The notes beneath the pieces were generated by a model, which was not told the origin of the DNA, made no database searches, and was given only the letters and a program-made list of their open reading frames with translations. From an uncultured SAR86 cluster bacterium (GTDB lineage Bacteria > Pseudomonadota > Gammaproteobacteria > Magnimaribacterales > AG-339-G14), in assembly GCA_902566955.1 (NCBI GenBank), contig CACFKX010000001.1, positions 1,813-65,812 on the forward strand: a DNA stretch of 64,000 nucleotides. Reading direction: 5' to 3'. Below are positions 29,723-44,593 of the stretch, piece after piece (within the stretch, counting starts at the first letter, position 1; each line of letters starts with the position of its first letter). Both the position numbers and the translations under genes were made by a program.

Positions 29723-29751
29723 TCATTACTTGTTCGTAATACTCTTAAAAA

Positions 29752-31485
29752 ATGCCTAATATTTCCCTCGGTATATCTTATAACCATCCTGATTCGGCTG
29801 TTGCATTATGCGTTGATGGCGAAATAGTTGCTGCTGCAGAAGAGGAAAGGTTTAATAGAATAAAACATAGTGCCGAATTTCCTAATCTTGCTATAAAAAA
29901 TATCTTAGATTTTGTTGGTATACAGCCTGATGAAATTGATCAAATTTGCATTAATTCTAATCCTACTTTTTATTCAAATCTAAACAGGCTTTTTAGGGAC
30001 AGTTTTAAAAATAATTTAAGCAAATTAATCAACAAAAGTAAGGATATAAAATTAAAAGATCACCTCAAAAAATTAGATTTGCATGAAAAGCCTATAAGAA
30101 GTTTTGAACATCACCTTTGTCACTTAGCTTCTGCAGTTTATGAAAGTGGATTTGTTGAAGCTACTGCTGTGTCTATCGATGCCCTAGGGGATGGCGTTTC
30201 CGCATCAATGGCAAAGTTTGATAGTAATAAAAAATTGAAAATAGATGAAAGAATTTTTTTTCCTAATTCTTTAGGTTATTTTTATGAGACTATGACACAT
30301 TATTTAGGATTTCCATACTGGGGTGATGAGTACAAAGTAATGGGCTTATCTGCATATGGTGAACCTAAGTACATAGATTTGTTAAGAAAGTTCTTTTTTG
30401 AATTGAAAATTAATAATTTTGATTTAAAAATTAATAGTAAGCTGATTAATCAAAATAAAAATTTTAGTTTTATTTATGGCAATAATGTAAAAGTAAATTC
30501 TCTTGTTAATGCAGAGCTTGAAAAACTTTTAGGAAAGGCAAGAAATAAAGAAGAGAATTTAACTCAATTTCACAAAGACGTAGCTGCTTCAACTCAAAAA
30601 GTCTTTGAGGAAGAAGCAAATAAGCTCCTTTTTTCAGCATTTGATAAGACTAAATGTCCCAAACTTGCTTTGGCTGGCGGATGTGCCATGAATTCTCTCT
30701 GGAACGGAAAAATAACCGATCAAACTCCATTTGATCAAATATTTATACCTGCAGCTGCTGGAGATGCAGGTGGCGCTTGCGGAGCTGCTTACTTGGGAAA
30801 TTTTGAATTAAAATCATTTGATTCTAAAAAAACTAGAAATATCAATGCCTCTCTAGGGATTGGCTATTCAAATGAATTCATAAAAAAGACTATTGATAAT
30901 GTCAATTTCAAAGATGATATAAAAATTTCATACTTCGAAAATGACGATGAACAAGTTGATTTTTTAACTGATCAGATTATAAATGGAAAAGTTTTGGGAT
31001 GGTTTTCTGGAAGAATGGAATGGGGCCCAAGGGCATTAGGAAATAGATCAATCATTGCAGATCCAAGAAGAACGGATATGCAAAAGCTATTAAATCTTAA
31101 AATTAAAAAAAGAGAATCTTTTAGACCTTTTGCTCCATCTATATTGAGAGAGAAAGTTTTAGAGTGGTTTGAAAAAAGTGATGATGTCCCCTTCATGATG
31201 CAAGTTTTCAAAATCAGAGAAGATAAAAGAAAAATTATTCCATCAGTTTGTCATGCTGATAATACAGGAAGACTTCAAACAGTTACCGAAGACCAAAATA
31301 AGAGATACTACAAGTTGATAAATTCTTTTGACAACAAGACAGGTGTTCCTATTCTATTAAACACTTCTTTTAATGAGCAAGAACCTATAGTTTGCTCTCC
31401 AGAAGAAGCTATCGATACTTTTGTAAGAACAAAAATGGATATTTTATCTCTTGAAAATTATGTTCTTGAGAGAAGATCTAATTAA
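29752..31485 (+). CDS. NodU/CmcH-family carbamoyltransferase
   Basis: 577 aa; LGISYNHPDSAVALCVDGEIVAAAEEERFNRIKH N-terminus and C-terminal GPRALGNRSI...DNTGRLQTV...NTSFN. Confidence 0.85.
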   Translation: MPNISLGISYNHPDSAVALCVDGEIVAAAEEERFNRIKHSAEFPNLAIKNILDFVGIQPDEIDQICINSNPTFYSNLNRLFRDSFKNNLSKLINKSKDIKLKDHLKKLDLHEKPIRSFEHHLCHLASAVYESGFVEATAVSIDALGDGVSASMAKFDSNKKLKIDERIFFPNSLGYFYETMTHYLGFPYWGDEYKVMGLSAYGEPKYIDLLRKFFFELKINNFDLKINSKLINQNKNFSFIYGNNVKVNSLVNAELEKLLGKARNKEENLTQFHKDVAASTQKVFEEEANKLLFSAFDKTKCPKLALAGGCAMNSLWNGKITDQTPFDQIFIPAAAGDAGGACGAAYLGNFELKSFDSKKTRNINASLGIGYSNEFIKKTIDNVNFKDDIKISYFENDDEQVDFLTDQIINGKVLGWFSGRMEWGPRALGNRSIIADPRRTDMQKLLNLKIKKRESFRPFAPSILREKVLEWFEKSDDVPFMMQVFKIREDKRKIIPSVCHADNTGRLQTVTEDQNKRYYKLINSFDNKTGVPILLNTSFNEQEPIVCSPEEAIDTFVRTKMDILSLENYVLERRSN

Positions 31486-32903
31486 AATTGAAAATATATA
31501 AATTGATCTATTGGCCTTAAAAAGATAAATATTAAGACAAGCATTACAGAAAGTATAAAGATTTCGGAGTTTTTTACTATCATCAATTTACTTAATTTTT
31601 CTTTGATGAAATAAACAAGATAAAAACATATTAAAAGACAAAAAGTAACGAGATATACGTTTTCCCTCATTGAAAAAAATAAATAATTATTTAGCGAAAA
31701 CAACTTTCCCCACATCATTATTGCCGTTTCTAAATTTTCTGATCTAAAAGGTATCCAACCTAACATCATAATAGGTAAAGTGAACAAAGTTCCAATAAAA
31801 GTAATTATTCTATTTTTAAAGATTAAACTCTTTGAAGAAGTTAATATCCTTTGAAGAAAAACGAAGAAAGCGTGATATAGCCCCCACAGCACAAAAGTCC
31901 AATTTGCTCCATGCCAAAGACCCATAATTGCCCAAGAGTAAAATAATGCTCTATCGGAATTTTCAGGAGTCTTTTCTACAATTCCACCTGTTGATCTATT
32001 AACAACACTTGATCCAGTTAAAGGTAAATAAAGGTAGTCTCTTATCCAGCTTGATAATGATATGTGCCATCTTTTCCAAAAATCTCTTGGAGAGGTTGCC
32101 GAATATGGAAAATTAAAGTTTTCAGGGAATGTAATGCCCATCAATAAGGCAGCCCCAATTGCTATGTGAGAATAAGCGCTAAAATCAAAATAAATTTGGA
32201 ATCCAAACAAGAAGGATAAAGTTAATACATCCCAAGCTCCTATGTCTTCAATAGGAATATTGAATCCTGAATCAACAAAAGCAGAGATATTATCTGCAAG
32301 AACTACTTTAAGAAATAATCCATAAATAATTCTTCTGAGTCCATTACTAAATGAACTCAAAGAAAATACAGATCTATCTCTTAGCTGATGAATTACCTCA
32401 GATGCTCTTAATATTGGTCCTGCAATTAATTGAGGGAAAAAAATTACATAAGATGAGTAAAGTAAAAAGTTTTTTTCAGGTTTTATAAATCCCCTGTAAA
32501 CATCAACAACATAACTGATAGTTTGGAATGTATAAAAGCTAATGCCCAGAGGAAGAATTATTTTTAGAAAAATTAAATCAACTTCTAAGCCGAATAAATT
32601 TAAAAAACCTATTGAACTATTAGCAAAAAATATAAGATATTTAAAATAGAACAAAAGAAAAAGGTTTATGAATATGCTTAAATACAAAAATTTTATGTTT
32701 TTTGAAACGTAAATTTTCTTTGCTAAAAAAAAGTCGACAACAACAGAGAAAAGCATTACGAAAATAAATTCAAACTTCCAGAAACCATAGAAAATTAAAC
32801 TTGAAATGAAAATTAACAAAAGTCTCGGCTGTCTAGGCAGAGTCCAATAGAGAAGTACTACAGACGATAAAAATAATAAAAAAGTTATAGAATTAAATAT
32901 CAT
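31482..32903 (-). CDS. MBOAT-family membrane O-acyltransferase (AlgI/DltB-like)
   Basis: 473 aa multi-TM; FWKRWHISLSSWIRDYLYLPL with the conserved His, then LWHGANW. Confidence 0.85.
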   Translation of the reverse strand: MIFNSITFLLFLSSVVLLYWTLPRQPRLLLIFISSLIFYGFWKFEFIFVMLFSVVVDFFLAKKIYVSKNIKFLYLSIFINLFLLFYFKYLIFFANSSIGFLNLFGLEVDLIFLKIILPLGISFYTFQTISYVVDVYRGFIKPEKNFLLYSSYVIFFPQLIAGPILRASEVIHQLRDRSVFSLSSFSNGLRRIIYGLFLKVVLADNISAFVDSGFNIPIEDIGAWDVLTLSFLFGFQIYFDFSAYSHIAIGAALLMGITFPENFNFPYSATSPRDFWKRWHISLSSWIRDYLYLPLTGSSVVNRSTGGIVEKTPENSDRALFYSWAIMGLWHGANWTFVLWGLYHAFFVFLQRILTSSKSLIFKNRIITFIGTLFTLPIMMLGWIPFRSENLETAIMMWGKLFSLNNYLFFSMRENVYLVTFCLLICFYLVYFIKEKLSKLMIVKNSEIFILSVMLVLIFIFLRPIDQFIYFQF

Positions 32904-34024
32904 TTTTCAAATTTCGCGTTTGCAATACTTTTAGAAAGTTTATTAGATAGAATTTTATGACCTTGAAATTGAAAGTGCATAAAATCAAGTTCATTATTGC
33001 TTGATAAGCTAGTCGAATCTTTTTCCCCCCAATATTTTCCTTCAACTAAATTTTCTAAGTTCAAAAATACTGCTCCATATTTTGTTGTCAAATCAAAGGC
33101 CGTTTTTTTAAATTCCTCATACTCATTCAAATCATATGGAATATTTACATCATTTCTTATCGGTACGATATAAACCAGAATATTTTTTTCAGAAGACTTA
33201 GCTTCAATGATTAATTTTTCTAAAAAAAATAAATTTCTTTTATAAATTGCTGGAATTATTTTTCTTTCAGTTGAAGGAGTTATATTAAAAACTTTATTTC
33301 TAGTTTTATAAAGCATGCTGAAAAATGCTGCTCTTAATTTAGGTCTCATTTCCCATAACTGTGAATATTTATTTAACTCACTATCCAGAAATCTCTCGGC
33401 TTTATCTTGAAAAGAACCATCTAAACCATTAAAGTCTGACTCAGAAGAGCTATTTTTAAGATTTTTGAGTTCTCTTGAAGATTCTTCATCTAGGGAAGAA
33501 GTAAATCCATCCAAATAAAGCAATTCCTCAAAGCTTGATCTTAAATTGCCTTCTCTAAAATCATCCATTACCAATGGCAAAAGAAGCGTTTTTATATCAA
33601 GGTTCATATCTAGATACTTATACAAAAGATATTTTTCAATGTAGTTAATATTTGGCATTGAAAAAGTTGTAAGGTTTTTTCCTTGAGAATCGAGTTCATT
33701 AAAAAGTATTTCAGGGGCTGGAACTTGTCCTTCTTCATATTGATTTATTCCATGAAGTTGTGAATTACCAATCCATAAAATATTATTTGAGAAATCATTT
33801 GCATAATTAATGCATTTTTTTGAGTCTTTTATGCCTTTACAATGAATTGAGCCTTTTTTTGATTTTCCATAAATACTTTTTGTCGCCTTTCCTAAGGCTA
33901 ATTCATTCCCATCCTGAAATAGTTCAGACTCTAAGATTAGAATGTTTAAGAAGCTAATACTCAATAAAGAAAGAAGGGAGATAAAAATTATGTATTTAAT
34001 AAAGTTATATTTAAGACTCATCAA
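32900..34024 (-). CDS. Exported SGNH-like partner of the MBOAT (AlgJ/AlgX/DltD-like role inferred)
   Basis: 374 aa; N-terminal TM/signal, block I-like WIGNSQLHG, C-terminal DFMHF (DxxH); start overlaps the MBOAT stop by 4 nt. Confidence 0.45.
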   Translation of the reverse strand: MMSLKYNFIKYIIFISLLSLLSISFLNILILESELFQDGNELALGKATKSIYGKSKKGSIHCKGIKDSKKCINYANDFSNNILWIGNSQLHGINQYEEGQVPAPEILFNELDSQGKNLTTFSMPNINYIEKYLLYKYLDMNLDIKTLLLPLVMDDFREGNLRSSFEELLYLDGFTSSLDEESSRELKNLKNSSSESDFNGLDGSFQDKAERFLDSELNKYSQLWEMRPKLRAAFFSMLYKTRNKVFNITPSTERKIIPAIYKRNLFFLEKLIIEAKSSEKNILVYIVPIRNDVNIPYDLNEYEEFKKTAFDLTTKYGAVFLNLENLVEGKYWGEKDSTSLSSNNELDFMHFQFQGHKILSNKLSKSIANAKFEK

Positions 34025-34036
34025 AATACAAACGCT

Positions 34037-35278
34037 TTAATTTTTTTTTGAATAAAAAGTTAACTTATCTTTGAAAAGCCAATAACAAAATAAAATAAAA
34101 ATAGTAAAAAATAGTATGTTCTTAATACTAGCAATTACTAATACAAAATCATTTCTGTGGACATAAAAAGCTAAAAAACCAAGGACGTAAAGAAAGATTA
34201 CTGTTGATTCTTTAGAGGTATGAAATGCCAAATTAAATTGAGTAATTATAAATATTATTATTAGTGAAAAAATAAAAACACCAACAAAGCCACCTGCCTG
34301 AAAGATCTCTCCCCAAATTGAGCTTCCAAGCCCATAAGAAAAACCTGGATTAGCTCTTGCTTCTATAACAGTAGAAAATCTTGATTCTTGCTCTCCTATT
34401 CCAACTAAATCATCCACCACAGGAATAGAGCCAACTACAGCGCTATTAAAAGAGTAATAATCTGAAAGATTTTGAGATGAAGTTAATGAAAGATTCGAAG
34501 CCTGTTGACCAAACTCTGCCGAAAAAAAAGCATAAAGCAAAAATCCAGCCAAGTTATCGAATCTTGAGTCGAGCTCAAGAATTCTCGAAATAGTATCAAA
34601 ACTCAGCAATTTAAGGTCAATATAAGAAATTTTGTACAAAACAAAAGCAGTGAAAATTAAGAGCATTACCAGAATGGGAATAAAATTTCGCAATCTAAAT
34701 ATTTTTTGATTGTAGTAAAGAATGAAGAAACCACATGCCAAACAGACAGCCATAGCCGCCCGAAACCCAATGAAGACATAAAAGAGTAAAGGAATAATTG
34801 CCCAGAAAGCTAAAGAATATCTCTTACTTGTAAGTGCATATAAAAAAGTCATTGCAGCTGGAAAGTAAGTTATAAGATAGTATGTCATTCCAGTTGATCT
34901 CAAAAATTCAGCTTTACCAGAAAGTAAATTTCCCCAGCCGGCATAGGCTGCATAAGCAGTCGATAAATATGAAAAAATAAGCAATAGGTAGAAGAAAATC
35001 AGTTCATCCCCCTCTTTTGATCTGTCGTACTTCTTCTCCCTTGTCGAACCTATCTTTACATCATTTACAATTGCAAAAAAAAGCAAAACCATCAAAACAA
35101 TTGAAATTATGACTTTAGATTGCTCCGAGGCGGGAAAAGTATATGGAGGAACCCAGATCGTTCCAGAAATTATTTGCCAGTTATAAAGCAAAGTTGATAA
35201 GAGAAATAAAAGAAGAAAGTCGATTTTGTTTCTTAAAAGAAAGTAAATGCTGGTGATAGTTGCTGTAGTAGTTAACAT
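34037..35278 (-). CDS. Wzy-like O-antigen/capsule repeat-unit polymerase
   Basis: 413 aa, about 10-12 TM segments with one larger loop, no soluble domains; sits in a cluster with Wzx and Wzz. Confidence 0.55.
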   Translation of the reverse strand: MLTTTATITSIYFLLRNKIDFLLLFLLSTLLYNWQIISGTIWVPPYTFPASEQSKVIISIVLMVLLFFAIVNDVKIGSTREKKYDRSKEGDELIFFYLLLIFSYLSTAYAAYAGWGNLLSGKAEFLRSTGMTYYLITYFPAAMTFLYALTSKRYSLAFWAIIPLLFYVFIGFRAAMAVCLACGFFILYYNQKIFRLRNFIPILVMLLIFTAFVLYKISYIDLKLLSFDTISRILELDSRFDNLAGFLLYAFFSAEFGQQASNLSLTSSQNLSDYYSFNSAVVGSIPVVDDLVGIGEQESRFSTVIEARANPGFSYGLGSSIWGEIFQAGGFVGVFIFSLIIIFIITQFNLAFHTSKESTVIFLYVLGFLAFYVHRNDFVLVIASIKNILFFTIFILFCYWLFKDKLTFYSKKN

Positions 35279-38200
35279 TAGGAATTAATTTTATTTTCTC
35301 TAGAAAATAAATTTGCCATTAGAAAGTCATTTTCATCTTTAATTTTGAAAGATGACAGTGAATCGATTAATACATGTCCAGAACCAGGGCTGGTAAGAAG
35401 CCTATTTTTTTTATACCAAGAAAAGTTCACGCTATGAATTCCACCAATTTCCTCAAATATAAAATCCCGCTCTAATCGGAGTTTTTTATTGTTAGAAAGT
35501 GGCGACAACCCATTACCTTCATGAGTATAAAAGTTTGAATTTGAATTTAGGACGCTAAATGATGAATTAGTACCAAAAACTTCCATCACATCTAGTGAAC
35601 TCTTTAAATAGTTCAATTTGAAAAACGGGTATTCATAGTTGACTACTGAAATAAATTTAATATCTTTATTCGAAGGTGCAAAATTATTTAATACATCATC
35701 AATCGTTTCTTCAATTGGAATATTTAAAGCCGCCAAATCTGGCTTTCTATTATGAAAAATTACTTTATTTGACTTTTCTAAAACTTTTTCAATGCGTTTG
35801 TCATCTGAACTAACTATTATTTTGTAAATTTTTGAACTTTCTTCTATTTTTGAAATGAGATTATTTATGATTGTCGATTTGCCAAATTTTTTTAAATAAA
35901 GAGGATTATCAGAAGAATCTTCTCTAATAGGGATTATTACAAGGGTTTTTTCTTTTGATACATTAGGATGATTTGATAAGATTTTAGACCTTGTTGATAG
36001 GATTTTTTCTTGATTTTTTGTGAGACTTTTTGGATGTTGTCTGTAATAAAAAAGAGGAATATTTAAGTTTGTCACTTCATATTTATTAGCGATCTTAGTC
36101 CATATCTCGTATCCATCCTGTCTGTCATATCTTTCATCGTATCCATTTATTTCTCTAAGGACAGAAGTCCTTATCATAGTACAAGCTCCGTGAGCGGGGA
36201 GATCAAGTACTTTAACTTCATTCTTGAAATCATTCCTTTTTTCCTGAGCAATGACATTATCTTTTTCATCGATTAAGTAATAATCAGGAAAAACTAACGC
36301 ATAATTGTCATTACCTTCCAGCACATCGGCTAAGTAATTTAAGGCATTCTTATCAAAGAAATCATCGGCATCAAGCCTTATTATATATTTTCCCCTAGCA
36401 TGAGATAGGGCAATATTATTGGTTTTATTCAATCCTAAATTTTTTTGCAGGAGAATTTTGACTTTTGGATGATTTGAATATTTATTAATAATATTCACAG
36501 AATTATCTTTAGAGCCATCATCAATTATAATTAGTTCAAAATCACGGAAATTTTGATCAAGAACTGAAGAAATAGCCTTTTCAACATAACGTTCATAGTT
36601 GTAACAAGTAATATAAACTGTAATTAAAGGATCATTAAGATATCCTTTCCAATCGACTTTAAGCTCATATTTCTTTGGAATTGACCTCTGTATAGTTTTT
36701 GAATTTACGCTTCTGAGTTTTTTATTGTTTTTAAAAAAGTTGTAAATGTCATCTATTTCATAATTATAGGTTTTGCCTATCTTTTTCATTTTTATCAAAA
36801 ATTTATTAATAACTTTGAAATCAAGTTCTGTATCTAAAGTTAACCTTAGGGGTGGAAAATTTGTATCAACGTCTAGGCTTGAGGTATTAAAATGCTCTCT
36901 AAGGTTTAAAACAAAGTTTGTTAAATATTCAGAGCCTGAAGTATCTTCATAATTTGAATTTATGAATTTAAGTATTTTTTTACTAAAAATTTCTGCCTCT
37001 GTTCCACTTGGGAGTCCTTTAGCGTCGCAGTAATCTGAATTATTAATCTTAAAAGTATTAATTGTTTTCTTTAAAGATGCAGGATCCACCAAAATATCAT
37101 CACCAGTTATCCTTAAAATAATTTCATAACCTTCATTGTCATCAATAGCTAGCATCATTCTTTTGAGGACATTTTCTTCTGAACCTCTATAAACTTGTGC
37201 GCCATTTTTAGAGAGTAGATTTGCTAAATTGTCGTCTGTAGATGAATCGGTCGTACAAAAGACAACTTTATCTATTACTTTCCTTTTTGTTGAAACCTCA
37301 AGTCTTTTCAATAAGTGAATGATTGTCTCTTCGTCGTTTATCTTCAAAAGAGCTTTATTTGGAAGCCTAGATGAATTTGTTCTTACAACAACTACAGCTA
37401 AAGATTTTAATTCCAGATCAGCTTTGGTGACTTGAGTATCTTTTGAAACATCTTTTGTAATTTTCTTTCCTATTATTTCTTTGTAAAAAATATTTGGTTT
37501 ATTACATTCCAATCTTTTCATGATCACATCTGATTCTTTGATAATTGAGCCCTTTTTAATATTTTTCTTCCACACAAATACCTTCTTTGCTTTTGATCTA
37601 TATTCTTCTTCTGCAGGCGAAAAGAAAGGCTGGCTAATAAAATTTTTTTCAGATTTTCTTAAGTGTTTTATAAAGGATTTCATTTCTTTGGGTTCTAAAG
37701 ATGAAAAATAGTCAACACCTCTTAGACTGCGGTCCAAAGTGATGTGTTTTTCTAAGTATGAAATCCCCAAAGGGACAGTTTGAAGAGGAAGGGTATATGT
37801 CTCAAGTTTTTCTGCATCAGCATGATCCATAAAACCATATTTAATTTTATCTCCAAATAGATCTTTTAAAAATATTAGTTTATCTAGATTATTTTCATCA
37901 AAAGGAGTTGGGTAAGTTTGAAATCCATGCATCAAGATTAATTCTTTAGCCATACTTTGATGAATAAATTGTGAAATTGAATCTTTTAGCTCAGGAATAG
38001 TCGAGCCGCCTGCAGAAAAAAATATCTTCCCTTCGAAATCTCTCAACTGATCTAATAGCGGAATATTTCCTAAATCAGAGGAATGAATCTTTATTCCATC
38101 TAATTTTAAATTTTTTGCAAATTTCAAAGAATCAAGCCCAAATACATCAGCATAAATTTCAATTTTATCGTTGGAAATTGAATTAAAAATTTCTTCCCAC

Positions 38201-38412
38201 TCTTTTTTTGAAAAAGCTTGATTCTTAAAATGTTTAAATCGAGAATGTTTTTTTACTAAAAGTTCATCAGCTGAATAAATCTGAAATTTTATTGCGTCTA
38301 TTCCAGTTTTATTAATTTCATTTGCAAGTTTTATTGCTTGCCTGAAATCTCCCTGATGAGAATTTGCAATCTCACCTATAACAGATATTTTATTTTTCAT
38401 CTTAAGAGTCAA
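35278..38412 (-). CDS. Four-domain fusion: NeuB-like synthase (with SAF) + SpsF/NeuA-like cytidylyltransferase + GT2 glycosyltransferase + second cytidylyltransferase-like domain
   Basis: 1,044 aa. Residues 1-340: VIGEIANSHQGDF..AIKFQ..LEKHITLD plus SAF. About 345-560: VVVRTNSSRLPNKALL..ITGDD. About 590-810: TVYITCYNYERYVEKAISSVLDQNF..LIIIDDGSKDNS..RLDADD. About 820-1044: VIIPIREDSSDNPL. Confidence 0.7.
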   Translation of the reverse strand: MTLKMKNKISVIGEIANSHQGDFRQAIKLANEINKTGIDAIKFQIYSADELLVKKHSRFKHFKNQAFSKKEWEEIFNSISNDKIEIYADVFGLDSLKFAKNLKLDGIKIHSSDLGNIPLLDQLRDFEGKIFFSAGGSTIPELKDSISQFIHQSMAKELILMHGFQTYPTPFDENNLDKLIFLKDLFGDKIKYGFMDHADAEKLETYTLPLQTVPLGISYLEKHITLDRSLRGVDYFSSLEPKEMKSFIKHLRKSEKNFISQPFFSPAEEEYRSKAKKVFVWKKNIKKGSIIKESDVIMKRLECNKPNIFYKEIIGKKITKDVSKDTQVTKADLELKSLAVVVVRTNSSRLPNKALLKINDEETIIHLLKRLEVSTKRKVIDKVVFCTTDSSTDDNLANLLSKNGAQVYRGSEENVLKRMMLAIDDNEGYEIILRITGDDILVDPASLKKTINTFKINNSDYCDAKGLPSGTEAEIFSKKILKFINSNYEDTSGSEYLTNFVLNLREHFNTSSLDVDTNFPPLRLTLDTELDFKVINKFLIKMKKIGKTYNYEIDDIYNFFKNNKKLRSVNSKTIQRSIPKKYELKVDWKGYLNDPLITVYITCYNYERYVEKAISSVLDQNFRDFELIIIDDGSKDNSVNIINKYSNHPKVKILLQKNLGLNKTNNIALSHARGKYIIRLDADDFFDKNALNYLADVLEGNDNYALVFPDYYLIDEKDNVIAQEKRNDFKNEVKVLDLPAHGACTMIRTSVLREINGYDERYDRQDGYEIWTKIANKYEVTNLNIPLFYYRQHPKSLTKNQEKILSTRSKILSNHPNVSKEKTLVIIPIREDSSDNPLYLKKFGKSTIINNLISKIEESSKIYKIIVSSDDKRIEKVLEKSNKVIFHNRKPDLAALNIPIEETIDDVLNNFAPSNKDIKFISVVNYEYPFFKLNYLKSSLDVMEVFGTNSSFSVLNSNSNFYTHEGNGLSPLSNNKKLRLERDFIFEEIGGIHSVNFSWYKKNRLLTSPGSGHVLIDSLSSFKIKDENDFLMANLFSRENKINS

Positions 38413-39736
38413 TTTGAAATATAAGCTTTTCTAAAGACTTAGTATTATCAGCAAAACTAATGTTGTGACCATCTATGTAGTCATTGAAGTAATTCTTGCC
38501 TCTATTATCAATTAATATAGATTTTATTCCTAGAAAATTTGCTTCAAAGATACTTGATGAAAAGGCAGTCAAATGAAAGTCAGCAATTGAAAGTGATTCC
38601 AAGAGAGGATTTTTTGAAATTGTCTCAATATCCACAAATTCCATCTTGCTAAATAAATTTTTGTAAAATTCAAAATTCTTCAAAGATATTTGCCTCGGAT
38701 GAAGTCTTATCAGTAAGTTTATTTTTTTGTTATTTTTTTCTAAAAAATCAATGACAAATGAATTTTCAACTTGAAAGGAAGGTTGAAGTGTAATGAGAAG
38801 ATTAATTTTGTTTTCATTTCTCAATGATGACACCGAATCATCTAGTTTAATGTTCTTAAAGGTGGTTAACCATTTGTAGCCATCTATTTGAACTTTGTGT
38901 TTATTAGTAAGTTTGACCAACTTTCTTAAACCTATTGAAGATTTTTCATCCCAACAAGAAAAAATATTTGGTAAAAATTTATACCCATCTTTATCAATTA
39001 AATTCCAGTTACCAAATGCCGGGTTATGCTGTGATTGACCGCCATGCTGCATGCAAACATTAAGAAGCTTTAACCTATCAGCTGCAAGACTAAGTGCAAA
39101 ACCAAAATTATCGTAATAAATTGCTTGATATATTTTTTTTACTTTCAACCTTTTTAAGAATTTTTCTAAAAATTTTGATAAGAAAAAGATATATGCAATT
39201 CTCGACATAACCTTAAACCTTGATATTTTGAAATCAAGATTTAGTTCTTTTTTTGCCTCATAAATTAATCTGAGATTCTTCTGATAATTTGGATTTAAGG
39301 ATAAAAGTGGAGCTAAGATCACAGAAATTGCTTTAAGTATTTTAACTTGATACAGAATGCTACCGATCTTATAAGTGATTGAACCATCCATTAAACTCAA
39401 ATCTTCAAGGTTTAATATTAAATTTCTATTACTAATATTTGATAAGGATGACATTACTCTGTCGTAATATTTATTATCTATTTCAATGAAATAGTTAGAG
39501 TGAGTAACGATTAAGTTTTCTGGATTTTTAACCATCATCTTTGGTTTCTTTTTAAAATAAGATTGAGATTCTTCATTATTTATACTTTGCTTTGAGGAAA
39601 TTAGTGAAAATGCGAACAAAGTTCGTATGACGGGCCAAAAATCTTCACCAAAAAAGTAGAATCTTGATTGTCCTTTCGAATCAAGAAAAATTTCAAGATT
39701 TGATAAGCCTTCAGAAATTTCTTTGTTATTTCTCAA
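38402..39736 (-). CDS. Hypothetical protein; possible GT-B-like glycosyltransferase with HP motif
   Basis: 444 aa; no confident family. C-terminal half has LLIRLHPRQ and a SSSIFEANFLG pattern reminiscent of capsule/sialyl-type transferases. Confidence 0.3.
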   Translation of the reverse strand: MRNNKEISEGLSNLEIFLDSKGQSRFYFFGEDFWPVIRTLFAFSLISSKQSINNEESQSYFKKKPKMMVKNPENLIVTHSNYFIEIDNKYYDRVMSSLSNISNRNLILNLEDLSLMDGSITYKIGSILYQVKILKAISVILAPLLSLNPNYQKNLRLIYEAKKELNLDFKISRFKVMSRIAYIFFLSKFLEKFLKRLKVKKIYQAIYYDNFGFALSLAADRLKLLNVCMQHGGQSQHNPAFGNWNLIDKDGYKFLPNIFSCWDEKSSIGLRKLVKLTNKHKVQIDGYKWLTTFKNIKLDDSVSSLRNENKINLLITLQPSFQVENSFVIDFLEKNNKKINLLIRLHPRQISLKNFEFYKNLFSKMEFVDIETISKNPLLESLSIADFHLTAFSSSIFEANFLGIKSILIDNRGKNYFNDYIDGHNISFADNTKSLEKLIFQIDS

Positions 39737-39739
39737 AAT

Positions 39740-40747
39740 TTACTCAAAGTCTTCTAGACTAATCTTTTCTAATTTTGATAAATTTCGCTTAGTTTTTTTA
39801 CCTAGAATAAGATCAAGCTGATTAGCTTTTAGGCCTGCTTCAGGTCTAAGAAAAGTAAAATCATCTTTCTCCACAACAGTGTTTTCTCTCAGATCTCTTG
39901 AAGGATAAATTGATTTTCTAAATGATTTAATATGATCAGTTGAGATCTCTGAAAAAGTAGGTTTTTTTTCAGACAAACCTAATGAGTCTGAGATAAATTG
40001 TATTTTTCTCCTTAATTGTTTTACCTCATCTTTTGTAAATGAAACAGAATGGTCTCTAAAGGCCTTTCCTTCTCTTTTATCTGTAAAATGAAATTCTAAG
40101 ATTTTTGCACCTTTAACTAATGCATATTCTAATGATGAAAGATTGGGAGAATGGTTTGAATATCCAATTATATAGTCAAATTCCTTTTTAAGAGTCTCAA
40201 TAACGTTTAAGTTCAACTCGATATCTGGACAGGGATAAACGCTTGTGCATTGCATGATGCATAACATATTTTTACTTTTATATTTTTCGTTAGTATTAAT
40301 GAGAACGTCAACTGCATCTCTAATCTCTTTAAGATTGGCCAAACCTGAAGATATAATCACGGGCTTACCTCTTTTTGCCAGTTTTTCTAGAATAGGAAAA
40401 CAAGTTAAATCACCTGATCCAACCTTGTAAAATGTAAGATATTTATCAAAAATCTCAATTTGAGCATCGTTCCAAATTGAGGCATTAAAATCAACATTTG
40501 ATCTTATGCATTTTTCAGCAAGTTGTTGATATTGTTCATTGGTTAAAGAAAACTTATCAAAGTGTTCTTTCCTTTGCTTATCAATAGTTTCATTTACTAG
40601 AGTTTTACCGGAATAAATTTGAAACTTTATGCTATCGACTCCTGATTCAATTGCTAAATCTGTAAGATGATTAGCGTATTCAAAATCACCTTCGTGATTT
40701 CCCCCAATTTCAGCTATAAGTTTTACCTTATTCGTATCAAAATCCAT
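39740..40747 (-). CDS. neuB: NeuB-family nonulosonic acid synthase (Neu5Ac/legionaminic/pseudaminic/Kdn type)
   Basis: 335 aa; LIAEIGGNHEGDFEYA, SIKFQ, GYSNHS, LEFHFTDKR, C-terminal SAF domain. Confidence 0.8.
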   Translation of the reverse strand: MDFDTNKVKLIAEIGGNHEGDFEYANHLTDLAIESGVDSIKFQIYSGKTLVNETIDKQRKEHFDKFSLTNEQYQQLAEKCIRSNVDFNASIWNDAQIEIFDKYLTFYKVGSGDLTCFPILEKLAKRGKPVIISSGLANLKEIRDAVDVLINTNEKYKSKNMLCIMQCTSVYPCPDIELNLNVIETLKKEFDYIIGYSNHSPNLSSLEYALVKGAKILEFHFTDKREGKAFRDHSVSFTKDEVKQLRRKIQFISDSLGLSEKKPTFSEISTDHIKSFRKSIYPSRDLRENTVVEKDDFTFLRPEAGLKANQLDLILGKKTKRNLSKLEKISLEDFE

Positions 40748-40809
40748 TTTTTAATTTTATATTACTTTCTTCTTGAGTAAGTTAAAATTCAGATAAATAA
40801 AACTTTCTT

Positions 40810-40896
40810 ATGTATCTTGTTGCCGGTGGAGCTGGTTTTTTCGGCGAGGAAATAATTTCTAAACTTTTATCTCAGGGAGAAAAAGTTAAAAATTAG
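40810..40896 (+). pseudogene. Remnant of an SDR epimerase/dehydratase N-terminus (28 codons)
   Basis: ATG at 40810 gives MYLVAGGAGFFGEEIISKLLSQGEKVKN then stop: a Rossmann GxxGxxG start with no body, on the opposite strand in the largest spacer of the island. Confidence 0.55.
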
Positions 40897-41896
40897 TAAC
40901 TTTCGGTGAATCAATTAAAAACGAATAATCTTGATCTAAAATAGGGATTCCTTTTATTTTAGGATAAGCTCGCTTTGAGTCTCTGCAGTAATAAAAATCT
41001 TCGTAATCCAACAAGGTTTTTTTGGAAATTGGACATACAAACTTTATTAATTCTTCATTTGGTTCTAAATAATCCTTTTTTTCAATAATATAGCAAGCGG
41101 TATGATTTAGAGGGTTAGCACTATTTTTCATTAAAAAAGATTCCTTTATGGTGATGTCCTGCCTTTGCGACAAGAATTGATCTAGGCCTCTAAAATAATC
41201 ATTTTTGATCATTTTTAATTTCTGAGATAAAGAACCTTTTTCAAATGAAGGTTCAAAAAGGACGATGCTTTTTCGGGATACCCTTATCATTTCACTTAAC
41301 GCAATATTAAAAATTCTAGGCATCTGCTCTAGTGTGTGTCTTGAATAGACCAGGTCAAAAGAAGAATCTTCAAAAGGAAGACTAATTGCATTTGATTTGG
41401 AGAGATTGATATTAAATTCGTGCCTTTTTTCAAATTCTTCTAGGCCATGTAGCAATCTATTTAGGGAAAGATCAATCGCAAACATTTTTGAAATTGAGGG
41501 CCTATGGGAGTAAATACTTTCCATTGTAGTAAGTTCACCTGCTCCAACTTCTAAAATAGAAGAGAATTCAAGATTATCTAATATTGAATTGCATTCTGTT
41601 CTAATTAACTTCATGTTTTCAATGCTTGATATTTTTTTTACCTTATCGTTGACAACACAATATCTTTCTTTGCCTACATGATAATTATCTTTTATGTAAG
41701 AACCGCTAATCCTGTCATATTGTTCCTCAACAAATTTTTCATCTCTGACTTGTCCTTTAAATATATGAAAAGGTATTATCAATAAACTTGAGAGAAGAAA
41801 ATAATATTCTTCTCTCTTCCAAGAATCTTTCTGCATTAGTAGAAGATCTAAAATTAAATTTATAGAGTTATTAAATAGTTTTGTTCTAGTTTTCAT
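40886..41896 (-). CDS. Class I SAM-dependent methyltransferase fused to a Trm112-like C-terminal domain
   Basis: 336 aa; ILEVGAGELT motif I, FDLVYSRHTLEQM, C-terminal FVCPISKKTL...YPKIKGIPIL. Confidence 0.65.
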   Translation of the reverse strand: MKTRTKLFNNSINLILDLLLMQKDSWKREEYYFLLSSLLIIPFHIFKGQVRDEKFVEEQYDRISGSYIKDNYHVGKERYCVVNDKVKKISSIENMKLIRTECNSILDNLEFSSILEVGAGELTTMESIYSHRPSISKMFAIDLSLNRLLHGLEEFEKRHEFNINLSKSNAISLPFEDSSFDLVYSRHTLEQMPRIFNIALSEMIRVSRKSIVLFEPSFEKGSLSQKLKMIKNDYFRGLDQFLSQRQDITIKESFLMKNSANPLNHTACYIIEKKDYLEPNEELIKFVCPISKKTLLDYEDFYYCRDSKRAYPKIKGIPILDQDYSFLIDSPKVTNF

Positions 41897-41905
41897 AACT
41901 TGAAA

Positions 41906-42691
41906 TTAAGAATCGTAATATATTTCATAATTGTATTCTCTCTTCTTTTCAGTACCTCTCATAAAATCTTTTCTTTTGAAAAGAAAAATAAATATCACTG
42001 TTAACCACTCTTTCACATGATTAAATAAATTTAAATTACTTAATTGATCATCTTCACGCCAACTTAAAGGAAAGAATTTAAAACTTAGTTTTTTTGCAAC
42101 TGTATAGAATAAAAGATAATAATTGAAAGTTAATCCGTTGGGAAAATTCAAATAAAATTTATCCTTTAACATCTCTACATTGTATAAGTTTAAACCTGCA
42201 CCCATATCTTTTATGACTCTTCTTGAGATAACTGACCCAATTAAATTTATACCAATATTTCCATATATCCTAAAATTTGAATAACCTTCTAATTTTGACT
42301 GTTGCATAAATCTGGAGCCGAGCACACAATCTAAACCTAAATAACTTTTTTTATTTATCACGGGTAAGATGTCCCTTATATCGCCTTGATCATCTCCGTG
42401 CACAACAACTAAAAAGTTATAATCATTATCTACAGCATAATTGAAGGCAACTTTGTGAGAACCCCCTAAATTATAATTTTCCAAATTTATAACGATCGTA
42501 ACTGAAAGATTTTCAATTTTCTTTAATGCCTCTTTTGCAACAGCCACACTGTTATCTGTGCTTCCATTATCTACAATTAGTATCTTGTCAAAGTTTTTAC
42601 AAACATCGCTATCAACTTTATCTAATACTCTAGAAATCTGATTTTCACAGTTATACATTGGTATAAAGATTAATTTTTTTAATTTACTCAT
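41906..42691 (-). CDS. GT2 polyprenyl-phosphate glycosyltransferase (GtrB/ArnC-like)
   Basis: 261 aa; IFIPMYNCENQISRVL..ILIVDNGSTDNS, HGDDQ, hydrophobic C-terminal segment; adjacent to GtrA. Confidence 0.65.
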   Translation of the reverse strand: MSKLKKLIFIPMYNCENQISRVLDKVDSDVCKNFDKILIVDNGSTDNSVAVAKEALKKIENLSVTIVINLENYNLGGSHKVAFNYAVDNDYNFLVVVHGDDQGDIRDILPVINKKSYLGLDCVLGSRFMQQSKLEGYSNFRIYGNIGINLIGSVISRRVIKDMGAGLNLYNVEMLKDKFYLNFPNGLTFNYYLLFYTVAKKLSFKFFPLSWREDDQLSNLNLFNHVKEWLTVIFIFLFKRKDFMRGTEKKREYNYEIYYDS

Positions 42692-42708
42692 ATAAAAAGA
42701 ATTTAATT

Positions 42709-43128
42709 TTAATAAAATCTAATTTTATTTGTCATTAATGCATTCATAAAGAGAAAATTCATATACAAGGAGAATGGGATCACGAAAATTTTTGGATAAA
42801 GTGGAATTACGTCCAAAAATCCAGTTAAAAAAACGATTAATATGGATAAAATATAAACTCTAAAAATATTGAAAAATATATATCCAACGAATTTAGTCAA
42901 AAGAAATTTTGAATCATGAATAAATGTATATTTTGCTGAAGAAAAATAAACAAAACTGACAGCAAAGAAACCTGCTGTTACATTAGAAAAAAAAATTGAA
43001 ACACCAAGATATATTAATGTTGAAAAAATAACTAAATCTATGGTGAGACCTAATCCAGAAAAGAATCCGAAACTAAGTAAATTAAGAGATTTAAACTTAT
43101 TAATTATTTTGTTAATTAATAAATTCAT
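42709..43128 (-). CDS. GtrA-family small membrane protein (putative lipid-linked sugar flippase)
   Basis: 139 aa, 4 TM segments, GLGLTIDLVIFSTL..AVSFVYFSSAKYTF pattern. Confidence 0.65.
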   Translation of the reverse strand: MNLLINKIINKFKSLNLLSFGFFSGLGLTIDLVIFSTLIYLGVSIFFSNVTAGFFAVSFVYFSSAKYTFIHDSKFLLTKFVGYIFFNIFRVYILSILIVFLTGFLDVIPLYPKIFVIPFSLYMNFLFMNALMTNKIRFY

Positions 43129-43157
43129 AAGGAAATTTAAAAAAAAAGGTTTGTAAA

Positions 43158-43529
43158 TTAGATATTATGTTCGGATTCTAATCTACCATCGCCTCGATTG
43201 GTATCATCTTCAAGCCTTATTACGTCATCAACTTCAGGAGTGGAAACTTCTTGCAAAATGATGTCAGTAATGGCGATTACTCTATGTTTTTTTGGAGGTT
43301 TTACTGTAAAAAAATCTCCAGCTTTCATAATTTTTTTTTCAACAATACCCAAATCATTTTCAAGCCATACTTCTGCTTCACCTTCTATGATGAAATTTGT
43401 CTCCAATTTCTCCTTATGGTATTGATAACTTGTCTTAGTACCCGCATTGATATATATCCTTTTATAACAATACCTATCATTTAACTCGAGCCACTCTTCC
43501 TTACCCCAGGGTTTAGAAACTATTTTCAT
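43158..43529 (-). CDS. Cupin-domain protein (type II PMI-like)
   Basis: 123 aa; KPWGKEEWL...TSYQYHKEKLETNFIIEGEA...QEVSTPEVDDVIRLEDD. Confidence 0.65.
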   Translation of the reverse strand: MKIVSKPWGKEEWLELNDRYCYKRIYINAGTKTSYQYHKEKLETNFIIEGEAEVWLENDLGIVEKKIMKAGDFFTVKPPKKHRVIAITDIILQEVSTPEVDDVIRLEDDTNRGDGRLESEHNI

Positions 43530-44523: not shown

Positions 44524-44593
44524 AATTTATCTAGAAATGATCGATAATCAATAATTTTTGAATTATATACTATTTTATTTTCAGGGTTTTTAA

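Follow-up and report, generated by a model that had tools for sequence, protein, structure and literature searches.

The canonical nonulosonic-acid (NulO) systems, NeuB/NeuA/NeuC (E. coli K1 and N. meningitidis), PseI/PseF/PseG and LegI/LegF/LegG, follow a three-gene logic in which NeuC, LegG or PseG carries out the aldose-releasing step. That logic is shared by three components of the SAR86 locus described here, namely a second NeuB paralogue (NeuB_B), a cytidylyltransferase and the domain pair D3D4, with the difference that the NeuC/PseG slot is occupied by a GT-A protein and not by an Epimerase_2/NeuC or PseG homologue. In the Bacillus subtilis sps operon (PMC7439481), the SpsE, SpsF and SpsA families are encoded together, as are the families of domains D1 to D3 here; D1 and D3 match SpsE (1vli) and SpsA (1h7l), respectively, directly in both sequence and structure, and D2 is of the SpsF/KdsB-like type, as in Bacillus. 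Legionaminic acid can be transferred without the GT2 protein SpsA, which is encoded beside SpsE and SpsF and carries a site of the DxD type (PMC7439481). Unlike the locus studied here, however, the sps operon consists of separate genes, its SpsA lacks a C-terminal NeuA-like domain, and a second NeuB paralogue is missing. It also encodes an aminotransferase, an acetyltransferase and the PseG/NeuC-type hydrolase SpsG, and none of these three was seen at the SAR86 locus.

Among solved structures, the closest or nearly closest relatives of D1, D2 and D3 are, respectively, the Leptospira borgpetersenii structural-genomics proteins 6ncs (NeuB-like), 6oew (cytidylyltransferase) and 6p61 (GT2), and since all of them come from one organism, the NeuB-CTP-GT2 association recurs outside marine taxa. 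They are, nonetheless, separate proteins with 23-29% identity, 6p61 (228 aa) lacks D4, and no published function was found for any of the three. The tandem GT-A polymerases K4CP (chondroitin) and PmHS2 (heparosan) are aligned by Foldseek over ~530-570 columns of the model, but both of their domains are active GT2-type domains with a DxD motif, whereas the second Rossmann-like domain here is NeuA-derived and has none, and an RMSD of ~20 Å indicates that the domain arrangement differs.

The four-domain gene and its surroundings

The window (a stretch of 64,000 nucleotides) contains, on its minus strand, an ORF at 35278..38412 that the earlier note had described as a single uninterrupted frame with four parts in order, a description that holds, with the Pfam and NCBIfam domains and the quoted motifs all present (Table 1); the plus strand is full of stops here. 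An alternative TTG start at 38412 would give 1,044 aa. The real product is likely the 1,040-aa protein starting at the ATG, 1 nt past the TAA of the upstream gene (taagATG), since every full-length member of its 90% protein cluster has that length.

Table 1. Features of the locus (all on the minus strand).
Feature	Position	Residues or length	Remarks
Four-domain gene	35278..38400	1,040 aa	ATG 38400, TAA 35280..35278
D1, NeuB-type PEP-condensing ulosonic-acid synthase with SAF (NeuB_A paralogue)	37405..38400	1-332	
D2, SpsF/KdsB-like CMP-ulosonic-acid synthetase	36646..37404	333-585	
D3, GT2 (GT-A) domain	35956..36645	586-815	
D4, NeuA-derived pseudo-cytidylyltransferase	35281..35955	816-1040	
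GT-B protein, candidate CMP-NulO transferase	38402..39736	444 aa	directly upstream, translationally coupled
NeuB_B, stand-alone second NeuB paralogue	39740..40747	335 aa	usual partner of the D3D4 unit; Pfam NeuB, E 1.4e-56
Wzy-like polymerase	34037..35278		downstream, TAATG overlap; Pfam O-ag_pol_Wzy, E 4.7e-8

The stop codon of the gene overlaps the ATG of the next one (TAATG), and because this overlapping neighbour is a Wzy-like polymerase, the gene is placed in a Wzx/Wzy-type surface-polysaccharide operon or island of this SAR86 gammaproteobacterium. The cluster also contains a KdsC-like phosphatase.

All four domain assignments are supported by Pfam, NCBIfam, PDB profile matches and Foldseek. 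D1 matches the Pfam NeuB TIM barrel (residues 29-252 from the ATG, E 1.7e-40) and SAF (274-330, E 1.8e-6), with 1xuu and 8h2c as Foldseek matches. Its residues E10, K38, Q40, K104, H193, E217, H219, D230 and R296 do not vary among 49 homologues and correspond to E25, K53, Q55, K129, H215, E234, H236, D247 and R314 of N. meningitidis NeuB, so that all the catalytic residues of the canonical enzyme are kept. D2 matches CTP_transf_3 (residues 335-482, E 4e-23) and PDB 6oew (E 3e-15; Foldseek TM 0.89). It has an intact P-loop (R340-S343-R345-K349, nt 37354..37383) and the ITGDD motif, with the P-loop residues, G433/D434, D523 and D527 invariant. Judged by these residues, it is strongly supported that D1 has everything that a NeuB-type synthase needs for catalysis and that D2 is equally complete as a CMP-ulosonate synthetase, and the two should jointly produce a single keto-sugar acid and activate it with CMP. 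This sugar is probably neither Neu5Ac nor Pse, since neither D1 nor NeuB_B reaches the NCBIfam equivalog cut-offs for NeuB or PseI.

The D3D4 pair

D3 matches Glycos_transf_2 (residues 594-750, E 1.8e-29) and has DDGS (627-630), DxD (677-680, nt 36361..36372) and a putative base, D762. The DDGS/DxD set, typical of enzymes with NDP-sugar donors, is invariant across homologues, and the invariant DxD implies that the donor of D3 is an NDP-sugar. The best solved relatives are the C-terminal GT domain of K4CP, which is also the best sequence match (E 4.7e-32), and Leptospira 6p61; the nearest characterised ones (K4CP, TuaG, EpsE and PglI) are ordinary sugar-to-sugar transferases. Over 74 loci, D3 has the highest median identity (55%, versus 40% for D1, 40% for D2 and 28% for D4), with identities of 42-60% from Archaea to Proteobacteria. 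It thus behaves as an enzyme with fixed small substrates, and as the most conserved domain it fits poorly the role of an acceptor-specific CMP-sugar transferase.

D4 is a homologue of NeuA, as shown by its matches to NCBIfam PseF-like (residues 822-1031, E 1e-9) and, with profile A2, to the PDB entries 9t4z (CMP-Kdn synthetase, 2.6e-23), 6ifd (6e-20) and 1eyr (3.5e-15). The earlier note was therefore right to see a second NeuA-like domain at the C-terminus, but a second working cytidylyltransferase is not what the residues suggest. Among 47 family members, the GGSK...K(N) loop of NeuA is variable (28 have Ala at the Lys position) and variable residues stand where SADIDT has its two metal-binding Asp. 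With the catalytic Lys and both Asp lost, D4 is classed as a pseudo-cytidylyltransferase and is in all likelihood dead as an enzyme of that kind. It retains, nonetheless, the NeuA fold, the dimerisation segment, a large part of the sugar pocket and the two Arg that bind the nucleotide, and at least 10 of its polar residues are invariant or near-invariant; P824, R885, H960, E977 and H1009 are found in 47/47 members and R826 in 46/47, and P925 is also kept. With both Arg conserved, a cytidine nucleotide (CMP-NulO, CTP or CMP) is the probable ligand of D4. CMP-NulO may not be bound in the fashion of NeuA, since the invariant Glu977 aligns with an Arg of the RRQD motif of NeuA enzymes, and this Arg contacts the sugar carboxylate. 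The invariant His pair gives a hint of a possible chemistry of its own.

D3 and D4 lie on a single polypeptide in 71/71 loci, and D4 occurs almost only behind a D3-type GT2. Relatives of the pair (E<=1e-20) number at least 2,634, in Bacteria and Archaea. In the loci analysed, D3D4 lies between or beside the CTP and NeuB genes, often with overlapping ends, and it also occurs in minimal cassettes with no other polysaccharide genes. NeuB_B orthologues (42-52% identity) adjoin D3D4 in most of 84 loci. That D3D4 is a separate evolutionary unit, travelling with the second NeuB paralogue and an active cytidylyltransferase, is strongly supported.

Possible roles of D3D4

On balance, we lean slightly towards an enzyme acting within the sugar-nucleotide pathway. 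The best explanation overall, although a tentative one, gives D3D4 such a role, most likely as the enzyme that splits an NDP-sugar and so provides the aldose. The GT2 domain would transfer the sugar to water, the freed aldose would be condensed with PEP by the NeuB paralogue(s), and D4, with its cytidine nucleotide bound, would couple or regulate the cleavage or dock D3D4 to the active cytidylyltransferase. NeuC (Epimerase_2) and PseG families are absent from the cluster in the window and from four Pfam-annotated loci, and they do not figure among the leading families of the neighbour proteins (47 type-II and 87 type-I). The entire Methanoplanus cassette consists of a TIGR04396/BFO_1060-like GT-B protein, CTP, NeuB and D3D4, in which every enzyme with a nucleotide-sugar site other than D3D4 already has an assigned role. 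A functional analogy may be drawn with mammalian GNE, in which CMP-Neu5Ac exerts feedback inhibition on the first committed step, in that an NDP-sugar-cleaving first enzyme would sense the CMP-activated end product; GNE is, however, a GT-B-like epimerase plus kinase with no homology to D3D4. In its specific form, cleavage plus cytidine-nucleotide sensing, the model is a possibility that we hold with clear reserve. The nearest characterised relatives of D3 transfer sugar to sugar, and at least one locus (L026) carries D1D2 and NeuB_B with no D3D4 within 24 kb. Moreover, we know of no NulO pathway in which a GT2 is devoted to hydrolysing an NDP-sugar, and if the product were a Kdn-like sugar made from mannose or Man-6-P, no NDP-sugar cleavage would be needed; the cluster does hold the KdsC-like phosphatase.

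The same kinship with bona fide sugar-to-sugar GT2 enzymes, together with the conserved DxD and catalytic Asp, fits an unlikely alternative, namely that D3D4 decorates the NulO itself: D4, with its retained fold, Arg pair and sugar pocket, would hold CMP-NulO, free NulO or a NulO-terminated acceptor, and a hexose or hexuronate would be attached to it by the GT2 domain from an NDP-sugar, forming a fixed disaccharide unit. A fixed donor and acceptor would account for the high conservation of D3, and the obligate D3-D4 fusion would be explained. On the other hand, Glu977 replaces the carboxylate-contacting Arg, the minimal cassettes would be left with no source of aldose unless the sugar came from free mannose, and to our knowledge neither the glycosylation of a CMP-activated NulO nor the transfer of a CMP-disaccharide has a precedent.

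Just as improbable, in our estimation, is that D3 is an ordinary repeat-unit glycosyltransferase and D4 a structural or docking module, for instance a pseudo-partner that pairs with the active cytidylyltransferase and keeps the enzymes in one complex. The Wzx/Wzy operon and the coupling to the Wzy-like gene speak for it, as do the dimeric nature of NeuA enzymes with the dimerisation segment kept in D4, and SpsA, the nearest precedent, presumably adds a different monosaccharide (PMC7439481). The identity of D3 between Archaea and Proteobacteria would be unusual for lineage-specific glycan acceptors, though, the minimal cassettes offer no other polysaccharide genes, and the conserved polar residues of D4 exceed what a passive scaffold needs.

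Less probable still is the model of the earlier note, in which one polypeptide makes, CMP-activates and transfers a keto-sugar acid; the GT2 domain or D4 would then be a new kind of NulO transferase. That all three steps take place on one polypeptide is doubtful. Synthase, activator and transferase do form a common cassette logic, hundreds of genomes have the unit fused with NeuB and CTP domains or next to them, and D4 probably still binds a cytidine nucleotide, with His960 and His1009 invariant; sialyltransferases often use a catalytic His. Nevertheless, the DxD indicates a diphosphate NDP-sugar donor and not a CMP-sugar (an argument also made in PMC7439481), D3 is too conserved for an acceptor-specific transferase, D3D4 sits within the NeuB/CTP block, SpsA is dispensable for Leg transfer, and a variable, often duplicated GT-B family, kin of proven Pse/Leg transferases, accompanies the cassette. 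We thus consider it likely that the GT2 domain is not a NulO transferase.

That transfer would instead be done by the adjacent 444-aa GT-B protein, which we regard as a better candidate than D3D4. Its sole NCBIfam match is the BFO_1060 family GT (E 4.6e-7), a weak one (29 bits against a cut-off of 200) that is also found in 19/40 relatives (best 5.8e-12), and the QHG and R-x-HP motifs are invariant in its family. The BFO_1060/TIGR04396 superfamily supplies candidate transferases in at least 20 of the loci, and the window has two. In Tannerella forsythia, founding members of the BFO_1060 family are genetically required for Pse/Leg addition (PMC5420450). The likeness to these transferases (Tanf_01245/TFUB4_00887/BFO_1060) is weak and concerns the neighbour and not the four-domain protein, comprising a GT-B/TagB-like fold, an HP motif and a position beside CMP-NulO genes. 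The AF2 model (pLDDT 90.5) has polysialyltransferase with CDP (5wcn) as its top PDB fold match, followed by NeuC-type hydrolysing epimerases, and since the latter fit almost as well, the roles of D3D4 and this neighbour could be reversed.

Distribution and origin of the fusion

The same four-domain architecture is found in ~70 protein clusters (967-1,055 aa, 38-56% identity) from Marinimicrobia, Flavobacteriales, Cloacimonadota, Pirellulales, Arcobacteraceae, Ca. Pseudothioglobus and others, so it is not rare, although, in line with the earlier note, no characterised member turned up in papers or the PDB. Other lineages have D1D2 and D3D4 as separate neighbouring genes; with gene boundaries shown as slashes, the arrangements are D1D2D3D4, D1D2/D3D4, D1/D2/D3D4 (Nanoarchaeia) and D1/D2D3D4 (Methanosarcinales), besides small-CTP, NeuB_B and D3D4 in Bacteroidota and Methanoplanus. 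While the two-gene state of many lineages might suggest that the long ORF is an assembly chimera or the product of a sequencing frameshift, this reading was tested and rejected, its probability being negligible: contigs of two independent runs (18 kb, run X1; 9.9 kb, run X2) cover 34800..39000 with substitutions only and 0 gaps, at least 10 independent members of the 90% cluster have 1,040 aa, the diverged clusters keep length and order, and the fused forms make up one clade in a rough NJ tree. The probability of 1,044 stop-free codons at the local composition is ~2e-41. We are thus highly confident that the fusion and the four domains are real. Two bifunctional genes, NeuB-CTP (D1D2) and GT2-NeuA-like (D3D4), have fused naturally into this one, which joins two gene pairs of a widespread, uncharacterised NulO-type pathway.

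Reading frame and glycan island

The gene encoding the four-domain protein (D1 to D4, with D1D2 and D3D4 as its two halves) is an uninterrupted ORF on the minus strand, the plus-strand reading of the same interval having been dropped because it gives stops only. It yields 1,044 codons from a TTG start at 38412, or 1,040 aa from an ATG at 38400, the latter being the length of all full-length members of its 90%-identity cluster. This ATG lies one base after the stop of the upstream gene (taagATG), and at the other end the stop of the fusion gene shares bases with the ATG of a Wzy-like gene (TAATG), so that the gene is translationally coupled on both sides. With the composition of the ORF, stops would on average be ~12 codons apart, and 1,044 open codons would arise by chance with a probability of ~2e-41. 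The possibility of an assembly artefact, raised in the earlier note, is ruled out by the equal length of the cluster members and by contigs of 18 kb and 9.9 kb, from two independently assembled public runs, that cover 34800..39000 gap-free, with substitutions only and the ORF intact.

The gene lies inside a glycan island of ~40 kb that encodes Wzx, Wzy-like and Wzz proteins, several GT1/GT2, epimerases, a carbamoyltransferase, an MBOAT, a sulfotransferase and methyltransferases. GC is 0.28-0.31 across the island (24000..64000), versus 0.33-0.41 in the housekeeping part (1..22000; ThrRS, PheT and others). The phenylalanyl-tRNA synthetase of the window shares a 90%-identity cluster with proteins named SAR86 cluster bacterium, which places the organism in the SAR86 clade of marine gammaproteobacteria. 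The gene order is that of a SUP05-clade genome, with proteins only ~43-58% identical; in Ca. Pseudothioglobus it is nearly that of the window over ~20 kb, the fusion protein being only 43% identical. Both the GC contrast and the SUP05-clade gene order agree with a hypervariable island that is exchanged horizontally.

Elsewhere in the island (see the table), an HpcH/HpaI-type pyruvate aldolase, a KdsB-subfamily cytidylyltransferase, an epimerase, a 2-hydroxyacid dehydrogenase and a HAD phosphatase are encoded in a run that looks like an aldolase-based route (from pyruvate, not PEP) to a CMP-activated 3-deoxy-ulosonic acid, and that is also present in Ca. Pseudothioglobus (L081) and partly in loci L045 and L067. 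Another run, which is an insertion relative to the Pseudothioglobus cluster, appears to be a phosphosugar or keto-sugar branch, its KdsC-like HAD (155 aa) being also Kdn-9-P-phosphatase-like. The short GT2 encoded with a GtrA-like flippase is nearest to the polyprenyl-phosphate sugar synthases PpgS, ArnC and AglJ, and a comparable set (GT2, Wzx-like and YfhO) occurs in the Bacteroidota D3D4 loci L079 (Catalinimonas) and L084, which together hint at a lipid-phosphate-sugar, outside-the-membrane glycosylation step tied to the D3D4 pathway. The island polysaccharide is probably carbamoylated, acylated and sulfated.

Features of the window, domains of the fusion protein and radical-SAM genes of other loci (positions in the window unless a locus is named)
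Feature	Position	Strand	Remarks
Four-domain fusion gene	35278..38412	minus	
D1	residues 1-332		NeuB barrel and SAF domain
D2	residues 333-585		SpsF/KdsB-like cytidylyltransferase
D3	residues 586-815		GT2 domain (GT-A, inverting family)
D4	residues 816-1040		NeuA/PseF homologue
444-aa neighbour	38402..39736		GT-B protein directly upstream of the fusion gene
NeuB_B	39740..40747		stand-alone second NeuB paralogue
GtrA-like flippase and short GT2	41906..43128	minus	adjoin a methyltransferase and NeuB_B
Possible phosphosugar or keto-sugar run	43158..47429	minus	class-II aldolase-like protein, small cupin, 522-aa nucleotidyltransferase, KdsC-like HAD, shikimate-dehydrogenase-like protein
661-aa ORF	47422..49407	minus	no Pfam or NCBIfam match
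374-aa ORF	32900..34024	minus	no Pfam match
Aldolase-containing run	51793..56698	minus	
Cytidylyltransferase of that run	55179..55949	minus	KdsB subfamily, above curated cut-off
Pyruvate aldolase of that run	55946..56698	minus	HpcH/HpaI type
Second TIGR04396/BFO_1060-like GT-B member	59767..61017	minus	416 aa, local HMM E 2e-11, no Pfam match
O-carbamoyltransferase, MBOAT acyltransferase, sulfotransferase	29752..32903 and 58936..59757	plus (O-carbamoyltransferase)	within the cluster
Radical-SAM gene	L080 8994..10016		
Radical-SAM gene	L022 8628..9986		
Radical-SAM gene	L026 10986..12380		
Radical-SAM genes	L001, L006, L007, L041		

The four domains and the fate of NeuA motifs in D4

The four domain assignments of the earlier note are borne out by Pfam, NCBIfam and profile matches and by an AlphaFold model of the whole protein (confident, mean pLDDT 87), for which Foldseek returns NeuB/PseI, SpsA/GT2 and NeuA/cytidylyltransferase structures in the respective parts. 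D1 passes the Pfam thresholds of both NeuB (PF03102, 139.5 bits, cut-off 22.1) and SAF (28.8 bits, cut-off 21), and its region matches 1xuu, 8h2c and 3g8r with a TM of 0.76-0.84. Its residues E10, K38, Q40, K104, H193, E217, H219, D230 and R296 are aligned with E25, K53, Q55, K129, H215, E234, H236, D247 and R314 of N. meningitidis NeuB, the metal ligands and catalytic residues of that enzyme, and all nine are invariant in 49 homologues. In NCBIfam, D1 remains under the equivalog cut-offs of N-acetylneuraminate synthase (TIGR03569, 182.5 vs 399.65) and pseudaminic acid synthase (TIGR03586, 139.3 vs 340.25), as does NeuB_B (237.3 and 171.7, respectively).

D2 scores 82.7 bits with CTP_transf_3 (PF02348, cut-off 22.6), resembles 6oew (TM 0.89) and has a P-loop whose R340, S343, R345 and K349 are invariant among homologues. 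D3 scores 103.3 bits with the Pfam GT2 family (cut-off 23.3), resembles 6p61 (TM ~0.9) and carries the DxD metal/diphosphate motif, the nucleotide-binding DDGS and the catalytic Asp of GT2 enzymes, with D627/D628 (DDGS), D677/D679/D680 (DADD) and D762 (the Asp of a QDG motif) invariant or nearly so; among solved structures it is closest to the C-terminal transferase domain of K4CP, the chondroitin polymerase, and to a Leptospira GT2. Of the systems described so far, the B. subtilis sps operon and NeuABC-type triads come nearest, together with three unpublished structural-genomics proteins of Leptospira (6ncs, 6oew and 6p61), which rank first or nearly so among the solved relatives of D1, D2 and D3.

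D4 matches the NCBIfam PseF model end to end (positions 3-218 of 222, E 1e-9), and a profile of 47 D4 sequences matches the CMP-Kdn and CMP-Neu5Ac synthetases 9t4z, 6ifd and 1eyr (E 2.6e-23 to 3.5e-15). When these 47 sequences are aligned to NeuA of V. cholerae and ‘Pp’, neither the GGSK...RKN loop nor the SADIDT metal site corresponds to conserved columns; in the window’s own D4 these stretches read IPIREDSSDNPLYL and SSFKIKDEND. The catalytic-Lys column holds Ala in 28 sequences, and also Pro or Val, and the columns of both metal-binding Asp (D209 and D211 in N. meningitidis numbering) vary among R, G, K, E and F. P824, R885, P925, H960, E977 and H1009 occur in all 47 sequences, and R826 in 46 of them; R826 and R885 are aligned with the two NeuA Arg that hold the nucleotide, and E977 with an Arg of the NeuA RRQD motif. 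Each domain is a member of a well-known family, with the exception that D4 does not have the P-loop Lys and the two metal Asp of CMP-ulosonic-acid synthetases. Because these columns are unconserved, D4 is predicted to be a pseudoenzyme as to cytidylyl transfer, with a conserved polar site of its own, and would be a clean example of a pseudoenzyme domain taken from the pathway’s own activating enzyme. A search with the D4 profile for other architectures returned almost exclusively D3D4 proteins and fragments.

Distribution of the two halves

A survey limited to a single genome per species yielded 79 loci, onto whose ORFs the four segments were mapped. D3 and D4 lie on one polypeptide in all 71 cases, and the remaining arrangement varies: D1D2D3D4 is fused in Pirellulales, Arcobacteraceae, Omnitrophota, Cloacimonadota, Ca. 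Pseudothioglobus and the window’s SAR86; D1D2 and D3D4 are adjacent, often overlapping genes in Pelagibacteraceae single-cell genomes, Rhodospirillaceae, Nitrospira, Parcubacteria, Scalinduaceae and others; D1, D2 and D3D4 are three genes in a nanoarchaeon; D1 is accompanied by D2D3D4 in Methanosarcinales; and a small cytidylyltransferase, one NeuB and D3D4 occur without D1 in Bacteroidota, Methanoplanus endosymbiosus and others. In all these types the NeuB adjoining D3D4 is an orthologue of NeuB_B (42-52% identity), not of D1, so that the conserved core is NeuB_B, an active cytidylyltransferase and D3D4, and D1D2 is a second branch, frequently adjacent to the core and fused to it in the window.

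Stand-alone D3D4 proteins number at least 2,634 at E<=1e-20, and the full fusion about 70 protein clusters. Examples of stand-alone orthologues of the window's D3D4 (35281..36645) are encoded at L079 12536..13918 in Catalinimonas sp. 4WD22 and at L082 10001..11401 in Methanoplanus endosymbiosus. The fused forms make up one clade in a rough NJ tree of D3D4, which suggests a single fusion event followed by horizontal spread. The fusion is already in databases, unnamed: source annotations call it only ‘N-acetylneuraminate synthase family protein’, ‘SpsE/SpsF’ or ‘hypothetical’, and the D3D4 unit only ‘glycosyltransferase’. In agreement with the earlier note, which knew of no characterised enzyme with such an architecture, literature searches on NeuB-CTP-GT2 fusions and GT2-type nonulosonic acid (NulO) transferases, together with a paper on NulO-synthase phylogeny, gave no match to it and no experimental work on the fusion or the D3D4 unit. 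The widespread GT2-pseudoNeuA module and its NeuC-less NeuB_B cassette are a more interesting result than the fusion itself.

In most loci with D1D2, a radical-SAM enzyme is encoded directly upstream of the D1D2 gene, either a ~340-aa SPASM protein or, in SAR11, a ~455-aa protein with DesII/BlsE-like matches, and Radical_SAM is the commonest family among 47 neighbour proteins (12 matches). This position suggests that other lineages subject the D1D2 product to a further, radical-based modification. The window has no radical-SAM gene, and the 444-aa GT-B gene occupies that position; the ~455-aa SAR11 gene, between NeuB_B and D1D2, was considered as a member of the 444-aa family and rejected on account of its DesII/BlsE-like matches.

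Transfer of the keto-sugar acid and the role of D3D4

The earlier note placed synthesis, activation and transfer of the keto-sugar acid on one polypeptide. This reading is supported in part: D3 is probably not the NulO transferase, for several reasons. Its invariant DxD set marks a metal-bound diphosphate-sugar donor, and CMP-sugar transferases generally have no DxD, as the authors of PMC7439481 also argue. D3 is moreover the most conserved of the four domains, with a median identity of 55% (range 42-60%, Archaea to Proteobacteria) versus 40% for D1, 40% for D2 and 28% for D4, and such conservation fits fixed small-molecule substrates better than lineage-specific glycan acceptors. D3D4 also lies within the NeuB/CTP block, often between both genes, and in B. 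subtilis the deletion of the GT2 SpsA, encoded with SpsE/SpsF, leaves spore legionaminic acid unaffected (PMC7439481). Pfam, NCBIfam, PDB-sequence and Foldseek searches of D3 and D4 gave no match to the sialyl-/NulO-transferase families GT38, GT42, GT52, GT80, Maf and BFO_1060-type.

The last reason is that the family of the 444-aa neighbour offers a better transferase candidate. This protein, for which Pfam and PDB sequence searches were empty and which was first suspected to be a membrane protein or an unknown, was placed only by its NCBIfam match, by a profile of its family and by a Foldseek search with its AF2 model. Its sole NCBIfam match is the BFO_1060 family glycosyltransferase, a model also matched by 19 of 40 relatives, and QHG and R-x-H-P motifs are invariant in the family. 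Genetic work on Tannerella forsythia shows Tanf_01245, the BFO_1060 orthologue, to be required for the addition of Pse/Leg derivatives (PMC5420450). The AF2 model is confident (pLDDT 90.5) and its top PDB match is a polysialyltransferase-CDP complex; NeuC and other UDP-GlcNAc 2-epimerases follow with nearly the same scores, and the fold by itself would be compatible with reversed roles, the 444-aa protein being the hydrolysing enzyme and D3D4 the transferase. Over the loci, jackhmmer from the 444-aa protein recovered the Ca. Pseudothioglobus locus and, weakly, L083, and no others. The wider GT-B superfamily was recovered from the Methanoplanus gene that precedes CTP-NeuB-D3D4, a full TIGR04396 member that also matches BFO_1060 (E 7e-27): TIGR04396/BFO_1060-like members are present in at least 20 loci, sometimes two per locus. 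The second such gene of the window could encode a CMP-sugar transferase for another activated keto-sugar of the island.

What, then, may D3D4 do? To our knowledge, no characterised de novo pathway to Neu5Ac, Leg or Pse can do without an enzyme (NeuC, LegG or PseG) that releases the aldose from its nucleotide. No Epimerase_2/NeuC or PseG family was found among the 36 annotated ORFs of the island or in the Pfam-annotated loci L080-L084, nor among the top families of 47 neighbour proteins from split or fused loci and 87 from Bacteroidota loci. Sugar aminotransferases are rare among neighbour proteins (DegT, 3 of the 87) and acetyltransferases and methyltransferases common. Two NeuC candidates in locus L026, which has no D3D4, were aminotransferases and so speak neither for nor against a mutual exclusion of NeuC and D3D4. 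The Methanoplanus cassette contains only the putative transferase, the cytidylyltransferase, NeuB_B and D3D4, so that, by elimination, D3D4 is left as the only conserved enzyme that has a nucleotide-sugar site but no step assigned to it.

For these two reasons (the lack of NeuC/PseG matches and the elimination), we tentatively favour a model, itself short of even chances, in which D3 would supply NeuB by cleaving an NDP-sugar, water being the acceptor, and D4 would bind a cytidine nucleotide, either regulating this committed step or docking D3D4 to the active cytidylyltransferase. Mammalian GNE is subject to feedback by CMP-Neu5Ac, which serves as an analogy only for such a role of D4. D3D4, made of a GT-A and a NeuA-like domain, has no homology to GT-B-type NeuC/LegG (Epimerase_2) or to PseG; it may work like the NDP-sugar hydrolases of NulO pathways and is not a member of their families. 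Several points stand against this model: no such GT2 hydrolase is known to us, NDP-sugar cleavage would be superfluous for a Kdn-type sugar that derives from mannose, and the model gives no reason for two NeuB paralogues. Furthermore, E977 and the two invariant His suggest that D4 has a ligand or chemistry unlike that of NeuA, and the nearest relatives of D3 are true sugar-to-sugar transferases. One main alternative is that D3D4 adds a sugar to the NulO or to its CMP derivative, with D4 as the part that holds this substrate. In another, D3 would be an ordinary repeat-unit transferase with D4 as a scaffold. The view that D3D4 is itself the NulO transferase is the alternative that the DxD set and the GT-B family speak against.

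In the most far-reaching reading, which is less likely than not, D3D4 would be a new enzyme family for a committed step of an unrecognised NulO pathway that thousands of Bacteria and Archaea have in common, with the SAR86 fusion as a ‘Rosetta stone’ to the second NeuB-CTP branch. That step would be carried out either by D3D4 in place of NeuC/PseG, as an enzyme of GT-A fold that carries its own cytidine-nucleotide sensor, or by new chemistry through the invariant His/His/Glu of D4, and marine SAR86-type bacteria would then display the resulting keto-sugar acid.

Nonulosonic acids shape the recognition of microbes by phages, grazers and immune systems, and their pathways are usually predicted from NeuB/NeuA/NeuC-type genes. 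Here, a distinct NeuB paralogue is found alongside a large conserved module of a GT2 and an apparently dead NeuA, whose relatives number at least 2,600 and extend from SAR86, SAR11 and Bacteroidota to methanogens. Both the single clonable ORF and the three-gene Methanoplanus/Catalinimonas cassette give a practical handle, as they could be expressed to identify the sugar. If D3 is an ordinary glycosyltransferase, the finding shrinks to an interesting, unremarkable gene fusion; if D3D4 supplies or modifies the sugar, the current gene-content rules for NulO type miss a whole pathway class, one that would be abundant in the surface ocean.
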